DNA of 64,000 bases from Dictyostelium discoideum (Eukaryota): assembly GCA_000004695.1 (NCBI GenBank), contig CM000153.2, forward strand, positions 4,864,001 through 4,928,000, given 5' to 3'. Below the pieces are notes generated by a model. That model saw nothing but the letters and a program-made list of their open reading frames with translations, made no database searches and had not been told where the DNA came from. Of the stretch, positions 11,042 through 19,209 are shown in pieces (position 1 is the stretch's first letter; each line of letters opens with the position of its first letter). Position numbers and translations under genes: made by a program.

Positions 11042-13194
11042 ATGTCAGTCGAAATTGTTCCTTTACCATTAAGGATTAATGAAAACGAAAGTTTTTTATC
11101 ATATGATGATAGATTAAATAGAGTTGTATTTAAAACATCATCTGGATTTGGAGTAGTACTTTTAGATGATCCAGAAGCAAATAGAAGATATTATAGTTCC
11201 GATAAACCAATCATAGATGCAAAATTTTCACCAGATTTAAAATATTCTGCAATACAATTCTCAGATTATGATATTGTATGTATATAAAAACATATTATTT
11301 ATTTATTTATTTCTCTATATATAATACACATTTAAACAAATGTGTTAATACATATAATTATTTTTATTTTAAAATTAGGAAATATTACATTTAGAGAATG
11401 GTACAAGATATATTCAAACATGTAAATATAAATCTAGTAAAGCCACTATATTAGGATACTATTGGACCACAAAAGAAAATATACTATTAGTAACAAATGC
11501 ATCATTAGAATTATATGCAATGGGTTTGGATGGTTCATGTAAATTAGTTAAAGAAAGTAAAATTAAAATAACGAATTGTGTTTATTCTGTAAGTTTATCT
11601 ACATATATATACATTTTTTTTTTTTTTTTTTTTCTTCAAATTTTTTAACAACAACAACTAACATTAATAATAATATTATTTATATAAATATAAATATAAA
11701 TAGTTTAATTGTAATTTTGGAGTACTATTTTTACATTCAGGTGGTACATCAATTCAACCATACTTTTTTAGAACCAATTCATTTGATAAATTACCAAAGT
11801 TTAATATTGAAGGTAATGGGAATGGATTTAATATAAAGAATTTATATGTAACGAAATTACATGAAAAGTTTTTTTGTGTTTATGGTGATCAAGAGTATAT
11901 TTATCTATACGAGATGACATTAGAGACAATCTATAAGATTAAACCTATAAAGATATTATTATCAGGTCCAAATAGTATTCATTTCGTTGATAATTTAATC
12001 ATTGTACATAGTGAATTAAATATTTCAATTGTTTACGATTTGAAAACTATTCAACGTGATCGTGAACGTGGTCAAACTAATAAAAAAGAACCTGAATTTC
12101 CAATATCTGCAATACCAATGACACTTTCAACTATAAATAGTAATAATTTATTATATTTAATGAATAATGCTACAAAAACACATTCCACAACTTCAACTCC
12201 AATAATTAATTCTATTAATAATAATAATAATAATAATAATAATCCATCATCGTCATCATCACCTAGTAGTAGTAATAATTCACAATCATCATCACCAACA
12301 ATGATATCATCATATGAACAACGCCAAATTGATCAACATAAAGAACAACAATTACAAAAACCAAATGTTACATTATATTCAAAGAATTGGAGATTCATTT
12401 GTCCAAACTATATTTTCGATCCAGATTCTGGTATTTGGTATGAAGTTACATTAAACTTTGAAAAGATTTCAAATTTCCTTCAATTCGATTCTCATAAAAC
12501 TATACCTTTTCTTCAAGAACGTACTTTGTTAAGTGCAAAGTTTGCATTACTTTCGATCATTAAAACAATCATTGAATTTAAAACTGATACTCTTGATGGT
12601 ATTGGTAAAATTTATGATGATCTAAATAAAGTTTTATTTAGAACTACAAATAGACAATTAACTGAAAGTTTACATAAATCAATTAATCAACCAAATAATA
12701 ATAATAATAACAATAATAATAATAACAATAATAATAATAATAATACAGCACAAACTTTAAATTCAACTGGAAATCTATCAAATAGTATTTCAATAGGTGG
12801 AATGAATACATCAACTGATAATTTAACAACAACAACAACAACATCGTCATCAATATCATCATCACCATCAAATTCATTTATTGGTAATTCAAAAACCAAT
12901 GTAAATAATTTATCATATTTAAATTATAAAAAACAACAGCAACAACAAATGGAAAAACAACAACATATGCCAAATGATGATGAAGATTCTTTTAGTTTAA
13001 TTGGAGATGGTGGTAGTGGTGGTAGTGGTGGTAGTTTTTATAATACAAATACAAATACAACCTCAACTACCAATACCACTACTTCCCCATCTGGTAAAAG
13101 TAATAGTAATTTGAAATTATCACAATCATTAAATAATACACCAAATCAATCACCAAATAGTAGATCATCTTTAAATAATAGTAGTAATAATATA

Positions 13195-13248
<54 letters not shown>

Positions 13249-14196
13249 CATGTTGTACAAAATAGACAATCAAGAAGTAATCAATATATTTTAATTAACA
13301 GTCATGATATGTATGATTTCGTATTCAATCCAATTTATGAAAAATTATTAATTGAATCACAAAAAGAAAAAGAAAAAGAAAATGATAATAATAATAATAA
13401 TACCAATAATAATACCAATAATAATAATAATAATAATATTGAAGAATTAAATTCAAATGAAAAATTAGAATTAGATTCAAAATATTTAATTGCAGTGGTA
13501 ATTCAATATATTAAATCATTAAGTTTTAATCATTGTACTGGTATATCGGATAAATTATATAATCTATTGATTAGTTTATTAATTGATAATAATATGTTTT
13601 CAAGATTACATCAATTCTTACAATATTATGTAATCACTGATTCATTATCAATAGCTTATAAACTTTTATCAATTGGTGAACAATATCCACCAGTACTTCA
13701 ATTGTCATTGGATATGTTTAAGAGATTATCAATGCCAAATATTATCATCGAAACTTTATTAGAGAGAGGTCAAGTTATTCAAGCAATTCGTTTATTACGT
13801 TCAACAAAGGAAACTAATGAACAAGCTTATCAAGAGTTGTTGACCCCAACTTATCCAATTCAATTCTTGGCTAGTTCTTCAAATCAGTCCAATGATACTC
13901 TATTCTTTTCAGTGTTTAAATTCTTTGAAACTAATAATTTAATTATACCTTCACATCCATCCTTTGATAAGTATATAAAATTATTCATTGAAAAGTTTAC
14001 TGAAAAATCATTATCACCTCTATTATTAGATATTCTTTCAAATTTAAATAATAATAGTACTAGTGGTGGTGATATAACTCCAAAGAAAAATGTTGGTGGT
14101 AGTTTCTTAAATCAAAGTTTAAATAATTCTTCTCCAACTTTAAGATCTTCAAATTCTTTAAATAGTTCACCTAGACTTCAATATTCTAATAATTAA
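11042..14196 (+). CDS. Regulator of MON1-CCZ1 complex (RMC1 / Mic1 / C18orf8 homolog). Three exons: 11042-11275, 11379-11588, 11704-14196.
   Basis: TCKYKSSKATILGYYWTTKENILLVTNASLELY, GVLFLHSGGTSIQPYFFRTNSFDKLPKFNIEG and IHFVDNLIIVHSELNISIVYDLK resemble human RMC1. Donors are GTATGT at 11276 and GTAAGT at 11589. The exon-3 acceptor (AATAG at 11699-11703) was chosen because it preserves the frame and restores the RMC1-like 'VLFLHS…IQPYFF' segment. The nearer CAG at 11738-11740 breaks the frame. A long Asn/Ser/Thr-rich low-complexity insert follows. Confidence 0.65.
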
Positions 14197-14582: not shown

Positions 14583-15851
14583 TTATTTTTCAAATGATGA
14601 AGGTATTGGAAAAATTTCATTAAAAGTGATATCGAATAAATATTGAATTTCATCAGTCATTAATTCTATTCCATCATTTAAACATATTGAGTTTATAGTA
14701 AGTCTTAATTGATCAACTTTTTGAAATATTTGTTGAAAATTATCATTATTTAATTGAAGATATAATACATCGGATGTGGTTTTAATTGTACATTTTGAAA
14801 ATTTAATTGCAAATTGGTTATATAAATGTGCCATTTGGAAATCAGTTTTATTTCTAAAGAAATGTGAAGAGGTGATTTCTAAACCTGTGCCGAAATCTTC
14901 TTGCATTTTATACCATATCTTTCTATTGAAAACTTGAATTCCATGAGCTGGGAAATTTCTTTTATACTCTTGTCCATCTCCCCATATTATTGCCAATGCT
15001 CTATTTGTTAATAAAACTCCCATTGTATATTCATCAAATGATTTTGAATTTCCCGATTTTCCACCCAGCACGTCTTTATTAAAAAAAACAACTTGATTAA
15101 AATTTTCATCAAAATAATCACTTTGTTCAACTGGTCTACTTAAAATTATATCATCATTTAAATATAAAAAACAATTTGAAACTTCAATTGGTAAATTCCA
15201 AAAATTTGATTCAATTGAATTTGAATTAAATGATGGTAAATCTGATCTAATAATTTTAAAAAATAATGAAAAAAATAAATATAAAAATGAAAAAAAAAAA
15301 AAAAAATGAAAAATCTATTAATAATTATTCTTTGAAAAATGAAAAAATAAAAATTTAAAAATAAAAAAATTATAAATAATTTACTTTTTATGAAAATAAT
15401 CATCATGTGATATAAATCTAACATTTTCAGGATTTTCTATATTAAACCATGTCGGTATTTGATTTGCAGTAATTATAAAAATATTTTTAATCCATGGTGC
15501 ATATTGTCTAACACTTCTTAATGAATATTTTAATGTACCAATATCTCTAAAATTGGTTGTGGGTGGTGAATAACTAAAATTACCTATTCTTTGTATTTTT
15601 GATTCTTCATGTATTGGATCTGAGCCATTAACCCAAGTATAAACTAAATCTACATATTTACATTCTCTTGACATTATAACTTGTTTAATATTTCTTTCAT
15701 TTTCATTTAAACCAATAGGTTTTGATTTAAAATCATCATATATTTCTTTAGGAAAACTTCTATTACAAAATTTGAAAAAAATAATTAAATAAAAAATAAC
15801 AATTACCAATGTAAATATAATTGATTTTTTTTTATTTAAATTTTTTATCAT
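14583..15851 (-). CDS. Stealth-family / GlcNAc-1-phosphotransferase-like protein, paralog B. Two exons: 15851-15385 and 15246-14583.
   Basis: CR1-like VDLVYTWVNGSDP, CR2-like LKYSLRSVRQYAPWIKNIFIITANQIPTWF, CR3-like LYLNDDII, and a conserved C-terminal exon. Exon 1 ends with a GTAAAT donor after …FHKK (phase 2) and joins a TTAG acceptor at 15248-15247. The start is taken at MIKNLNKKK (15851), after an upstream poly-F/K artefact. Confidence 0.7.
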
Positions 15852-16244
15852 TTTTTTTTTTTTGAATAAAATAAAATAATATAAAATAAAATAATATAAA
15901 ATAAAATAAAAAAAACCCAAAAGACACTAACTCTTGAAATTATTTATTTTTTTTCTTTGTCACTTTTTTAAATACTTTCAGAAAATAAAAAAAATAAAAA
16001 AAATAAAAAAATATATATTTTATAATAAATTGGATCAACCTATATGCTCAGAATGTCAAAAAAAAAAAAAAAAAAAAAAAAAAAAACAAAATAATTATTC
16101 TTTAAATTTCTTATGAAAACCCTGGTTTTTAAAACTAAAAATAAAAAATAAAATAAAAAAAAAAATTAAAAAAATTAAAAAAATTAAAAAAATCAAAATG
16201 CACAAAATAAAAATAGATTCGAACATTGCAAACGTTGTAAATGT

Positions 16245-16295
<51 letters not shown>

Positions 16296-16429
16296 ATTTT
16301 TTTTTTAAACACCAAAAGTGACTTGCACCAATTCCTCTAAAAAATTTTTTTTTTTATTTTTTTATTTTTTATTTTTTCATTTTTAAACCGCCAAAAAAAA
16401 AAAAAAAAAAAAAAAAAAACGAACCTTTT

Positions 16430-16530
16430 TAAAAAATAAAATAATTGATTTGAGTTGGACAATTTTTGTAAATAATTGTTAATAAACTCTAAACCCTCAT
16501 TTAAATTTAAACATATTGAGTTCATTTTAT
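16430..16530 (-). pseudogene. Relic fragment of the Stealth 3' exon, lying between the two paralogs
   Basis: Minus-strand translation …KEIKMNSICLNLNEGLEFINNYLQK… matches paralog A's C-terminus …RDETNSICLNDGLEFINDDLQKK…, as does the nucleotide motif …catttaaa(c)atattgagtt…. There is no upstream exon and the match decays quickly. Confidence 0.5.
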
Positions 16531-16622
16531 CTCTTTAATTTTTAAATTCCAATATCTATAAAACCAGGAGGTGGTGTTGGTGAATATTGTCAAACACCAA
16601 TACTGTTTTTTTTTAATTTTAT

Positions 16623-17941
16623 TTATTTTTCAAAATTAGATTTAATTGGGAATAGGAAATTAAAAGTATCATCAGATTTTTTTTGAAGATCATCATTAAT
16701 AAATTCCAAACCATCATTTAAACATATTGAGTTTGTTTCATCTCTGGAATTTTTAAGGATTTCTAATTTTTCATCAAAATTTTCATTATTTAATTGAATA
16801 TATAATACATCATCTGAACCTATAATTGGTTTTGAATATCTTAATGCAAATTGAATATATAAATGTGAGATTTGAAAATCAGTTATATTTCTAAACTTAT
16901 TTGAAGATGTAATTTCTAAACCTGCACCAAATTCTTCTTGCATTTTATACCATATCTTTCTATTGAAAACTTGAATTCCATGAGCTGGTATACTCCTTTT
17001 TCTATCTTGACCCCAAATTGAAGCCAATGCTCTATTTGAAAATAAAATTGCTTTTGAATATTGGTCATATAAATCTAGAAAATAGGCTTTTCTACCCATT
17101 AAATATTCCGTTAAAAAAACGGATTGTCTAAAATTTTTATTTTCATCAAAATAATCACTTTGTTTAACTGGTCTACTAAAAAATATATCATCATTTAAAT
17201 ATAAAAAACAATTTGAAACTTCAATTGGTAAATTCCAAAAATTTGATTCAATTGAATTTGAATTAAATGTTGGTAAATCTGACCTAAAAATTTTAAAAAA
17301 AAAATAAAATTACCATATTAATATTAATTAATTTATTTATAAAATTATTAAAAATTTAATTTAATTTACTTTTTATGAAAATAATCACTATGTGAAATAA
17401 ATCTAACATTTTCAGAATTTTCAATATCGAACCATGTCGGTATTTGATTTGCAGTAATTATAAAAATATTTTTAATCCATGGTGCATATTGTCTAACACT
17501 TCTTAATGAATATTTTAAAGTATTGAGATCTCTAAATGAAGATGGTATATATCTATTTACAGAGATATCATCAGCTTGTAAACTCATTCTAGTTTTCTTA
17601 TGACTATCGATATGTTTTGGATCTGAACCATTTACCCAAGTATATACTAAATCCACATATTCACATTCTCTTGATAATACAATTTGTTTTATTCTTTTTT
17701 CTTTTTCTGTTAATTCTATTGGTTTTGATTGAAAATAATTATAAATTGTATGTTCATCAAAAACTTTATTTTCACCATTAATCGTGTACCCAATTCTATT
17801 AAATAAAACAAATGGAAAATCTATATCTCTTAATTTACAAAATAAGAATGTATTACTTATTATTACTATTATTACAGCTATTAAAAAAACACCTCGTTTC
17901 AGTAGGTATTTTGGTATTCTCTTTGTAGCAGACAGCCTACT

Positions 17942-17944
<3 letters not shown>
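16623..17944 (-). CDS. Stealth-family / GlcNAc-1-phosphotransferase-like protein, paralog A. Two exons: 17944-17370 and 17283-16623.
   Basis: VDLVYTWVNGSDP, LKYSLRSVRQYAPWIKNIFIITANQIPTWF and YLNDDIFF, with a …NFEK* tail. Same exon structure as paralog B (GTAAAT donor, TTTTTAG acceptor, phase 2). The start is taken at MSRLSATKR (17944), after a poly-K artefact. Confidence 0.7.
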
Positions 17945-17988
<44 letters not shown>

Positions 17989-18203
17989 CCAACTTTACAA
18001 TTTAGTTAATTTTCAGTTTAATAAATATAATAAACTATTCAATTATTACTGTTACAATTATTATTACTGTTATTTTTTTTTTTTTGTTTTACCAGAGGAA
18101 AAAAAAAATTAAAAAAATTAAAAAAATTAAAAAAAAAATGTCAACTAAAAATAAAAAATATCTTAAATTTCAAAAAAAACCGATTAACATGAACAATCTA
18201 TTG

Positions 18204-18260
<57 letters not shown>

Positions 18261-18438: not shown

Positions 18439-18902
18439 TTAAATTTTATTTTTTGCTTCTAAAACGAATTTCTCTTCAAATTTATTCTTTGGTGTCATTG
18501 AGGCAGCAATGGTGTAATATTCATTTGCTTTTTCATATTGTTTTAATTGAGTGTAACAATCAGCGATTGAAACTATACATCTAATTAAAGTTGGATCAAT
18601 TTGATAGGAACTTAAAAAATAATCCAATGCTTCTTGGTATGTTGCATTTGGCACTTTACCAAATAAAGCATTTGCAACACCCCTCTCAATCCAACTTATT
18701 GATGCCACTGAATAACTCCATCTTCCTAATAAAAATAAGGTTATACTATCATTTGGTCGTAAATTTAAAGATTTTAATGCATACTCTTGAATTTTTGGTG
18801 CATTTCCCACTTTTTCTTTTGAACTTAAAAATTCACCTAATCCTGATGTTGAAATTGCCCACCACTTTATTATTTATTAATATTATTAATAATATTTTTT
18901 TT

Positions 18903-18936
<34 letters not shown>

Positions 18937-19209
18937 ACATACTTTATATAAATCAGGATGTTCATTAGTTGGTATGAATTTATTTATTATTTCTAATGAA
19001 GTTTGAATATATTTTAATTTTGTATCTCTATCTTCTTCTAAATCACTTTGATTATAATATGCACGAGCTAATCTCCAATTGATTTCAACATTCTTATTGA
19101 CATTATCTTGGTCCTCTTGTTGATTAATAAATTCAATGATTTCATCATGTTTACATTGGTCATGTAATTTATCTGCTTTATTAATTATTTCTTCCATTGG
19201 TAAAAACAT
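18439..19209 (-). CDS. TPR-like protein, possibly regulator of microtubule dynamics (RMD/FAM82) family. Two exons: 19209-18943 and 18864-18439.
   Basis: …VEINWRLARAYYNQSDLEED… followed by TPR-like helices. The GTATGT donor after …HPDLYK and an AAAG acceptor join in frame to WWAISTSGLGEF…. Exon-1 end coordinate is uncertain by ±1 because of an ambiguous homopolymer count. Confidence 0.4.

Follow-up and report, generated by a model that had tools for sequence, protein, structure and literature searches.

Probable minimal Stealth enzymes and a pseudogene fragment in a birth-and-death array of Dictyostelium discoideum

Two adjacent genes of Dictyostelium discoideum, termed here Gene A and Gene B, very probably encode minimal Stealth enzymes within a birth-and-death array, in which a relic lying between them is the non-functional, duplicated 3' end of an A-type gene. 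The genes lie within a 64,000-nucleotide stretch of contig CM000153.2 (positions 4,864,001 to 4,928,000), referred to below as the window and used for all coordinates.

Gene models and Stealth domains

Both genes are on the minus strand and each has two exons. Gene A consists of a 575-nt first exon (17944..17370; ATG at 17944), which encodes residues 1-191 and contributes 2 nt of codon 192, an 86-nt intron (17369..17284) and a second exon (17283..16623) that includes the stop codon. In Gene B the first exon is 467 nt long (15851..15385; ATG at 15851), the intron 138 nt (15384..15247), and the second exon again runs to the stop codon (15246..14583). The introns of both genes begin with GTAAAT and end with TAG, and because the two first exons each leave a remainder of 2, both introns are in phase 2. 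They follow FISHSDYFHKK in Gene A and FISHDDYFHKK in Gene B. The splice models thus bear out the identical exon architecture described in the initial annotation, with a phase-2 GTAAAT donor after ...DYFHKK on the minus strand, and the ends of the span that it gave, 14583-17944, are exactly the Gene B stop and the Gene A ATG.

The spliced products, of 411 residues for Gene A and 376 for Gene B, are identical to D. discoideum AX4 DDB_G0286711 (XP_637636.1/Q54LC5) and DDB_G0286709 (XP_637635.1/Q54LC6), respectively. Both genes and their assignment to the Stealth family are already public, where their annotation label is "hypothetical"; a literature search found no mention of their gene IDs or UniProt accessions.

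Profile searches uphold the Stealth assignment made in the initial annotation and place the first three Stealth conserved regions (CR) of both proteins above the Pfam gathering cut-offs. Stealth_CR1 (PF17101, cut-off 27.2 bits) scores 44.9 bits in A, at residues 95-120 (17585..17662, minus strand; E 8.9e-12), and 41.7 bits in B. Stealth_CR2 (PF11380, cut-off 39.4) spans the intron in both genes, scoring 139.4 bits in A (residues 137-242; 17133..17536, minus strand; E 6e-41) and 139.0 bits in B (residues 101-207; 15093..15551, minus strand; E 8.1e-41); in A it holds the LNDD metal/ribose motif and aligns to the GNPTAB structure 7s6n. Stealth_CR3 (PF17102, cut-off 24.2) scores 42.6 bits in A, where residues 292-338 (16845..16985, minus strand; E 5.8e-11) include PAH, with the catalytic His, and FRNITDFQ, with an Arg and a Gln; the score in B is 52.1 bits. 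The fourth region, Stealth_CR4 (PF17103), reaches E values of about 1e-5, at 25.4 bits in A (E 1.4e-5; residues 369-411; 16626..16754, minus strand) and 26.2 bits in B (E 7.9e-6), both under the cut-off of 27.4. This region contains the CLND motif in both proteins, can be aligned to GNPTAB (in A through a second aligned stretch) and to CpsY, and has a precomputed PF17103 match in A/B orthologues of other species.

The linkers between the conserved regions are 10-50 residues long. A Pfam scan at E<=0.1 returned Stealth regions only, with no Notch, DMAP or other accessory domain in either protein. A Kyte-Doolittle scan finds a single hydrophobic segment in each, at the N-terminus: residues 18-36 of A, GVFLIAVIIVIISNTFLFC (17837..17893, minus strand; mean hydropathy 2.63 over 19 residues), and residues 11-29 of B, IIFTLVIVIFYLIIFFKFC (15765..15821, minus strand; mean 2.82 over 19 residues). 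The two anchors do not align, in keeping with the divergence at the N-terminus that had been noted before. In such an arrangement a short N-terminus would face the cytoplasm, followed by a single membrane anchor and, in the lumen, a catalytic domain consisting of CR1-CR4 alone.

Structural homologues and catalytic residues

With the sub-threshold CR4 included, the four conserved regions of A and B stand in the same order as in the Stealth family at large (PMC1285062), and as just described they carry no accessory domains. Among structures in the PDB, both proteins match the catalytic domain of GNPTAB (7s6n; E 3.2e-36). A further hit is CpsY (8j2n; E 7.9e-31), with a match that spans residues 97-408. 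CpsY is a solved minimal Stealth enzyme from bacteria, from which A and B differ in being eukaryotic and intron-containing, in having an N-terminal membrane anchor and in a CR4 that falls just under the Pfam cut-off.

GNPTAB (PDB 7s6n, 7s05, 9bgg) encodes the alpha/beta subunits of UDP-GlcNAc:lysosomal-enzyme GlcNAc-1-phosphotransferase. Its catalytic domain is homologous to A and B, in which the donor-binding and catalytic residues are conserved, but both lack its Notch repeats, DMAP-interaction domain, spacers and EF-hand. The motifs LNDD, PAHG and FRN(I/K)TDFQ, present in both genes, supply the strictly conserved Asp, His and Arg, equivalents of GNPTAB D408, H956 and R986, for which the respective roles are Mg1 ligand, base and phosphate contact (PMC9388126). 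In the alignment to 7s6n, both genes retain equivalents of S385, I388, E389, N406, D407, D408, H956, R986, Q992 and N1151. By contrast, the GlcNAc contact H959 is replaced by Gln and the acceptor-side N1153 by Gly in both, while R322, also on the acceptor side, is replaced by Ser in A and Asn in B. Arg322 and Asn1153 have been proposed to position the terminal mannose acceptor (PMC9388126).

A relic of an A-type gene

In the spacer between the two genes, the codons for LEILKNSRDETNSICLNDGLEFINDDLQK recur as a decayed A-type copy (16463..16553, minus strand), which now reads LEFKN*RDKMNSICLNLNEGLEFINNYLQK. By blastn, 16545..16463 matches Gene A 16756..16680 with 77% identity over 83 columns, a 6-nt insertion included; with looser gap scoring the match extends to 16553..16463 against Gene A 16767..16680. 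By tblastn the similarity is 66.7% over 30 residues (E 8.5e-5), and it ends after LQK. The initial annotation had placed a short degenerate copy of the C-terminal coding sequence at 16430-16530: its existence is upheld, whilst its coordinates were slightly off, the recognisable part being 16463-16553.

The genome is extremely AT-rich, and spurious poly-A/T matches abound in the sequence flanking the relic, such that one might attribute the similarity to chance in low-complexity DNA. A shuffled-spacer null is uninformative here because T-runs matched introns. Instead, the null was built from 2002 real, length-matched stretches from elsewhere in the AT-rich 64-kb window; their local scores have a mean of 26.8 (sd 5.2) and a maximum of 50, against 74 for the relic. 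Every copy in four other genomes can also be aligned with the relic at the corresponding codons, A-type copies giving the best matches, and the protein-level E value points the same way. A chance origin is thus vanishingly improbable, and the empirical null drawn from the window itself rules it out.

The relic is A-type, its nearest match being the A gene of its own genome. It has an in-frame TAA upstream, a 6-nt (two-codon) insertion within the CLND motif and, as had been claimed, no upstream exon; no further Stealth-like piece was found in the A-B spacer at E<=10. It has features expected of a pseudogene fragment: similarity to a parent gene at equivalent codons, a disabled frame and the absence of all other parts of the gene. 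At the syntenic place in D. cf. discoideum there is only a 17/18-nt core, whose score of 38 is within the range of the null.

A functional role for this sequence has some superficial appeal. An ATG-initiated ORF of 62 codons (MNSICLNLNEG...; 16337..16525, minus strand) starts inside the relic, and on another D. discoideum assembly an automated predictor joined MNSICLNLNEGLEFINNYLQKLSNSNQLFYFLKR to Gene B at SFPKEIYDD, making the relic an alternative first exon (model P0124/KAM9941872.1). That model, however, would have to splice from a GTTCGT donor over a ~660-nt intron to an acceptor within Gene B exon 1, and it strips Gene B of its only membrane anchor. The ORF ends in translated poly-T and has no Pfam match, a stop lies just upstream in the ancestral frame, the two-codon insertion splits the CLND motif, and D. 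cf. discoideum shows scarcely any conservation of the relic. Function of this sequence, whether as such an exon or as a small independent ORF, is highly improbable.

The relic is best regarded as the leftover of a duplicated A-type 3' end, produced either by a whole extra copy that was then mostly deleted or by a short segmental duplication. The second route, which involves no third gene but only the duplication of a segment of ~0.2 kb from the 3' end of Gene A just downstream, is a real possibility, if less likely than not. The relic starts only ~70 nt past the Gene A stop and 211-214 nt from its cognate sequence, it resembles the A gene of the same genome most, and the spacer is free of other Stealth fragments. 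Against this, the last 19 codons of Gene A and its 3' flank are not recognisably repeated after the relic, where only low-complexity matches are found, and in D. dimigraforme a whole-copy duplication has been followed by internal deletion, leaving fragments of the end of exon 1 and of the C-terminus. That species has two clearer A-type fragments at the same locus, which, with the A-type character of the relic itself, supports the earlier proposal of at least one further round of duplication and decay.

Other features of the window were considered. The 3' flank of the relic matches the region downstream of Gene B at 76.9% over 91 columns, ending in a T-run, and this match was judged to be low-complexity similarity. 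GC-richer spacer patches and the words TTTGACATT and TTGGTGTTT were considered as shared elements and rejected: TTTGACATT occurs in the window as often as chance would predict, and TTGGTGTTT shows a mild enrichment there (six matches against 2.0 expected), with 3/6 clustered near 56.6 kb. ARAGORN found no tRNA genes, and a search of Rfam gave only a far sub-threshold match to mir-463 (27.9 bits against a threshold of 70).

Divergence and history of the paralogues

Gene A and Gene B products are 65% identical over 350 residues, with 68% identity in the alignable part of exon 1 and 62.8% over exon 2, the latter within the 60-70% initially estimated for the C-terminal exon. In the tree, A and B belong to a subfamily (bootstrap 100%) that is limited to D. 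discoideum and closely related species. The A clade (88-100%) and the B clade (90%) are well supported, whilst the order among A, B and a third lineage is not fixed. A phylogeny had been suggested as a means of deciding whether the two genes are sister copies; they are paralogues but not recent sisters, each having its own orthologue clade in other species. The A/B split is older than the speciation of D. discoideum and the relatives compared.

Copy number at the locus varies. Two copies are present in D. firmibasis and one in D. citrinum, where Gene B is missing from the syntenic site. The locus in D. dimigraforme comprises A, B, a third copy and the two A-type fragments, which have 90.6% and about 92% amino acid identity to its own A gene; two of its copies are B-type.

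The two genes have also evolved at different rates. dN/dS is 0.23-0.30 among A orthologues and 0.36-0.52 among B orthologues, and the comparison of D. discoideum with D. dimigraforme gives a dN of 0.091 in A and of 0.230, 2.5 times as high, in B; the dN/dS values and any rough dating are approximate, because dS approaches saturation in a genome with such an AT bias. The faster rate of B, together with its absence from the syntenic site in D. citrinum, might be taken to mean that B is becoming a pseudogene, so that the pair would be one working gene and one decaying copy. Yet the reading frame of B is intact with canonical intron signals, none of the catalytic residues checked has been lost in D. 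discoideum, D. cf. discoideum or D. dimigraforme, dN/dS remains far below 1, and D. dimigraforme has kept two B-type copies. Decay of B is accordingly very unlikely. The higher dN/dS of B could reflect relaxed constraint rather than a new function. The initial annotation had suggested that the diverging copies may differ in acceptor specificity; what the sequences show is the higher non-synonymous rate of B and, in both genes, the replacement of two GNPTAB residues implicated in placing the mannose acceptor.

Superimposed on this divergence is a tract at the end of exon 1 in which the two genes resemble each other within a species. The tract lies at 17372..17524 in Gene A and 15387..15539 in Gene B (both minus strand). 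Third-position identity was dropped as evidence for conversion, as even comparisons between species give 95-97% third-position identity in this region; the measure is unreliable because a strong A/T codon bias gives conserved residues the same codons. Quartet site patterns were used in its place. Over the whole gene, 58 sites support orthology and 16 are concerted, but within amino acid columns 151-240 the counts are 1 and 10, as opposed to 57 and 6 elsewhere (Fisher p 1e-7). Nine sites are common to A and B within species and differ between species (A 17487-17403; B 15502-15418), and the concerted sites include the synonymous pairs ATT/ATA, ACT/ACA and GCA/GCT. In columns 151-240, dS is 0.14 between paralogues within a species and 0.27-0.28 between orthologues. 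Gene conversion between A and B has homogenised a stretch of ~150 nt in CR2.

The clear conversion sites are limited to the end of exon 1, although the tract possibly continues into exon 2. Where exon 2 begins, identity is high among all copies in all species, so that constraint rather than conversion may be the cause.

The locus is a birth-and-death array undergoing ordinary gene-family turnover. Like other tandem families of this kind it shows a varying copy number (one, two, or three plus fragments), fragments of dead copies, unequal rates between copies and one concerted tract, which together make up the textbook pattern.

Proposed enzymatic role

We infer the activity, donor sugar and acceptor of A and B from homology. 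By analogy with the catalytic domain of GNPTAB, the donor is most likely a UDP-sugar, probably UDP-GlcNAc, and the reaction would transfer a sugar-1-phosphate onto an acceptor hydroxyl in a single metal-dependent step. The equivalent of His956 (GNPTAB numbering) would act as the base, with those of Arg986, Asp408 and Asn1151 holding the phosphates.

One reading is that A and/or B are redundant GlcNAc-1-phosphotransferases of the mannose-6-phosphate pathway, acting on N-glycans as gpt1 and GNPTAB do. They have the same catalytic fold and largely keep the residues that contact UDP-GlcNAc. D. discoideum already possesses a proven N-glycan GlcNAc-1-phosphotransferase of the same enzyme family, gpt1 (XP_638036). 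Qian, West and Kornfeld (2010) reportedly found the activity abolished in a gpt1 knockout, which would weigh against redundancy. gpt1 is moreover the only proven enzyme for the N-glycan step and is treated as such (PMC11795075, PMC6994554), and the equivalents of the mannose-positioning Arg322 and Asn1153 are replaced in both A and B. In favour of redundancy, the minimal GNPTAB catalytic core by itself phosphorylates free mannosides (PMC9388126). Taken together, a role for A or B in this pathway is distinctly unlikely. Nor is gpt1 the same gene as A or B: neither of them contains the peptide that links CR1 and CR2 in gpt1 (quoted in PMC9388126), gpt1 was not among the 34 closest A/B homologues whose sequences were compared, and A and B fall in a separate subfamily. 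The acceptor of A and B is probably not the terminal mannose handled by the separate gpt1 enzyme.

Dictyostelium contains unusual protein-linked sugar phosphates, namely GlcNAc-1-P-Ser and Fuc-1-P-Ser. The literature found by search names no transferase gene for either. Several D. discoideum Stealth genes were listed by Sperisen et al. (2005, PMC1285062), who proposed that they act as hexose-1-phosphoryl transferases for protein phosphoglycans. For the additional Stealth genes of this organism, serine phosphoglycosylation of secretory or lysosomal proteins is the candidate role in the literature (PMC1285062). In its most specific form, this would make A and/or B the long-sought Golgi enzyme adding GlcNAc-1-P or, for example, Fuc-1-P to serines, with the fast-evolving B shifted in its acceptor or donor preference, a scenario that is unlikely. 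The acceptors in that case may be the cysteine proteinases or spore-coat proteins of D. discoideum.

Implications

The relic, the conversion tract and the differences in copy number account for several faulty automated models in new Dictyostelium assemblies. These models fuse A and B, fuse the upstream TPR gene to A, or take the relic for a first exon. The same three features, with copy number compared between species, are a record of ordinary gene-family turnover. A and B, alike in catalytic core but evolving slowly and fast respectively, offer a natural contrast, and as candidate serine-phosphoglycan transferases the pair provides two concrete targets for knockout.

Gene models and Stealth homology

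Two intact genes, A (DDB_G0286711) and B (DDB_G0286709), lie in tandem on the minus strand and were spliced by eye and by script. In gene A, a 575-nt first exon (17944..17370) is followed by an intron at 17369..17284 and a second exon at 17283..16623, giving a product of 411 aa; gene B consists of a 467-nt first exon (15851..15385), an intron (15384..15247) and a second exon (15246..14583), encoding 376 aa. Both introns read GTAAAT...TAG and, since both exon-1 lengths leave a remainder of 2, both are phase 2. They follow FISHSDYFHKK in A and FISHDDYFHKK in B, and are unlike each other in sequence. The common architecture described in the initial annotation, with a phase-2 GTAAAT donor after ...DYFHKK, is seen in both splice models, and its outer limits of 14583-17944 coincide exactly with the stop of B and the start of A. 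By exact-sequence look-up the products are the D. discoideum AX4 proteins DDB_G0286711 (XP_637636.1, Q54LC5) and DDB_G0286709 (XP_637635.1, Q54LC6), named in databases only as "hypothetical" or "uncharacterized".

The two proteins share 65% identity over 350 aa (BLASTP), with 68% in exon 1, where it can be aligned, and 62.8% in exon 2, in keeping with the roughly 60-70% first estimated for the C-terminal exon. Their N-terminal anchors, previously described as diverged, do not align, and A carries an eight-residue insertion between conserved regions CR1 and CR2 that B lacks. Long homopolymer runs are found upstream of gene A (17945-17999 and about 18200-18260), appearing on its strand as ~55 A immediately 5' of the ATG and ~57 T farther upstream. 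Comparable runs occur in the A-B spacer, and together they swamp any naive similarity search in these regions.

The assignment to the Stealth family through CR1-CR3 held in a Pfam HMM search: CR2 is detected with E-values of 6e-41 (A) and 8e-41 (B), and CR1 and CR3 exceed their curated cut-offs in both proteins. CR4 scores 25.4 bits in A and 26.2 bits in B against a cut-off of 27.4 (E about 1e-5), and the Pfam scan found no domains besides the Stealth regions in either protein. Among solved structures, gene A matches the catalytic domain of GNPTAB (7s6n, E 3.2e-36; also 9bgg and 7s05) and, over aa 97-408, CpsY, a bacterial Stealth enzyme (8j2n, E 7.9e-31). Each protein has a single strongly hydrophobic N-terminal segment (aa 18-36 of A; aa 11-29 of B). 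The Stealth-only domain content, the structural matches and this segment point to A and B being minimal membrane-anchored Stealth enzymes. They are not orthologues of GNPTAB, and they are also distinct from gpt1 (XP_638036), which alone among Dictyostelium enzymes is proven to act in methylphosphomannose synthesis (PMC11795075, PMC6994554).

The structure alignment was read against the residue roles reported for GNPTAB (PMC9388126). Donor-binding and catalytic positions are conserved, equivalents of S385, I388, E389, N406, D407, D408, H956, R986, Q992 and N1151 being retained in both proteins. H959 is replaced by Gln and N1153 by Gly in both, and at the position of R322 A has Ser and B has Asn. 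The two residues implicated in positioning the terminal mannose acceptor are R322 and N1153 (PMC9388126).

A disabled gene fragment between A and B

A degenerate copy of the C-terminal coding sequence, placed by the initial annotation at 16430-16530, proved genuine, its recognisable part being 16553..16463. The top non-self blastn match in the window aligns 16545..16463 with gene A 16756..16680 (77% of 83 columns, one 6-nt insertion); with gentler gap scoring the aligned region grows to 16553..16463 against 16767..16680. Translated in its ancestral frame, the fragment reads LEFKN*RDKMNSICLNLNEGLEFINNYLQK, the counterpart in gene A being LEILKNSRDETNSICLNDGLEFINDDLQK; it is thus disabled by an in-frame stop and by a two-codon insertion within the catalytic CLND motif. 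It scores 74 in local alignment to the A coding sequence, compared with a mean of 26.8 (sd 5.2, maximum 50) for 2002 equal-length windows from the rest of the AT-rich window, and tblastn gives an E-value of 8.5e-5. Scored against the corresponding codons in twelve copies representing five genomes, it matched AX4 A best (74), followed by D. dimigraforme A (65), with B-type copies lowest (33-40). The fragment is therefore a true relic of A type with a disabled reading frame. As had been claimed, it has no upstream exon: tblastn found no further Stealth-like pieces, either in the spacer or in the rest of the 64-kb window.

A 62-codon minus-strand ORF (16525..16337, starting MNSICLNLNEGLEFINNYLQK) overlaps the relic. 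In another D. discoideum assembly, an automated model (P0124; KAM9941872.1, 379 aa) takes this ORF as its first exon, joining 16525-16424 on the minus strand to about 15760 and entering gene B at SFPKEIYDD, with loss of the gene B membrane anchor. As this requires a GTTCGT donor and a ~660-nt intron, the model is probably a prediction artefact.

Phylogeny and syntenic loci

Neighbour-joining analysis of 333 columns with 200 bootstraps recovers an A clade with members from D. firmibasis, D. citrinum, D. dimigraforme, D. cf. discoideum and D. discoideum (bootstrap 88-100%), a B clade comprising D. dimigraforme B and a third full copy, C, together with B of D. cf. discoideum and D. discoideum (90%), and a third clade (the P0005 group) of single-copy genes at another locus (100%). 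The second D. firmibasis copy groups with this third clade at 82%. The three clades form one subfamily (100%), of which no members were seen outside D. discoideum and its close relatives, with the branching order among the three lineages at bootstrap values of only 50-58%. The separate multi-species clades indicate that A and B are old paralogues still lying side by side, and not recent sister copies.

One D. discoideum strain assembly (ACTFIW_002350) contains a P0005-type paralogue that forms a single-member cluster without an AX4 entry. AX4 DDB_G0268950 (P0032, 493 aa) resembles a shortened form of another family protein (P0017, 552 aa), lacking part of its interior as well as the true C-terminus. 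The AX4 annotation may include incomplete Stealth gene models and omit others.

Syntenic loci were compared in four other assemblies, where the flanks, an upstream RMD1-3/TPR gene and a large downstream gene, are kept. D. cf. discoideum has both A and B. In D. citrinum (L002 5040-6911) the A orthologue stands alone between the conserved neighbours, and the 560-nt spacer that separates it from the convergent downstream gene contains neither a B copy nor a fragment. D. firmibasis carries two copies in tandem. In D. dimigraforme (L004 8328-15581) the order is A, B, two A-type fragments and C, which is nearly identical to B. The first fragment (L004 11462-11557) shows 90.6% amino-acid identity to residues 163-194 of that species' own A, and the second (L004 12569-12731) about 92% to residues 356-411. 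The simplest reading is that the A-B pair was duplicated and the second A then decayed. This supports the duplication and decay originally proposed for the locus; the initial interpretation needs correcting on one point, in that A and B split long ago.

D. dimigraforme C retains a C-terminal hydrophobic tail (EKINNHPNQSSIFNISIVVLFLFFTIFLILTKLLF); B of that species ends in two stop codons, with a remnant of that tail readable downstream (L004 11410-11463). Such a tail, along with an N-terminal anchor, is present in the second D. firmibasis copy (L003 8380-9619) and in the unlinked P0005-type paralogues (P0005 locus L006 8001-9564, from a D. discoideum strain); neither the A-clade genes nor B of D. 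discoideum have it. The subfamily may descend from a form anchored at both termini.

The upstream neighbour (18439-19209, minus strand) is a two-exon RMD1-3/TPR family gene, ~230 aa in related species and syntenic in all four other assemblies. Annotation fuses it to the A orthologue in D. firmibasis (P0004, 578 aa), and in D. cf. discoideum A and B are annotated as a single 748-aa protein (P0125, L005 4001-7289) that omits A's last residues and B's anchor. Convergent with gene B is a plus-strand ORF of 760 codons that contains long stretches of Asn, Ser and Thr (11914-14196); at this position related species have larger orthologous models (973-1016 aa).

Selection and gene conversion

Both genes are under purifying selection, with B much less constrained. 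By the Nei-Gojobori method, A orthologue pairs have dN/dS values of 0.23-0.30 and B pairs of 0.36-0.52; in the comparison of D. discoideum with D. dimigraforme, A has a dN of 0.091 and B one of 0.230. For the quartet formed by A and B of these two species, gene-wide site patterns favour orthology (58 sites, against 16 concerted and 7 other), whereas alignment columns 151-240 show 1 orthology and 10 concerted sites (Fisher p 1e-7). Nine concerted sites, synonymous changes among them, fall at A 17487-17403 / B 15502-15418. With D. cf. discoideum the tract still gives 2 against 5, and its dS is lower between within-species paralogues (0.14) than between orthologues (0.27-0.28). The concerted sites and the low paralogue dS reflect gene conversion between A and B over the last part of exon 1. 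Where exon 2 begins, near-identity is common to all copies in all species and is thus not assignable to conversion.

Possible function

The N-terminal anchor suggests that A and B would face the Golgi lumen and, by homology to GNPTAB, they may transfer sugar-1-phosphate from a UDP-sugar in a single metal-dependent step. The donor would be UDP-GlcNAc, given that most, not all, GlcNAc contacts are kept. The acceptor is likely to be other than terminal mannose, since two acceptor-side residues are substituted and gpt1 already covers that step.

The genes and their family are already known from public databases and from the original Stealth paper. In the latter, Sperisen et al. (PMC1285062) recorded multiple Stealth genes in D. 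discoideum and suggested a role for them in making GlcNAc-1-P-Ser and Fuc-1-P-Ser. According to a glycomics study from 2025, dictyostelid phosphoglycosylation is still little known (PMC11795075), and no papers naming DDB_G0286711 or DDB_G0286709 were found in the literature searched. What the present analysis adds, namely the relic, the conversion tract and the differences in copy number, is new detail, ordinary in kind. It is possible that A or B is a serine phosphoglycosyltransferase, as one among several candidates; if true, this is the one reading that would raise the interest of the pair.
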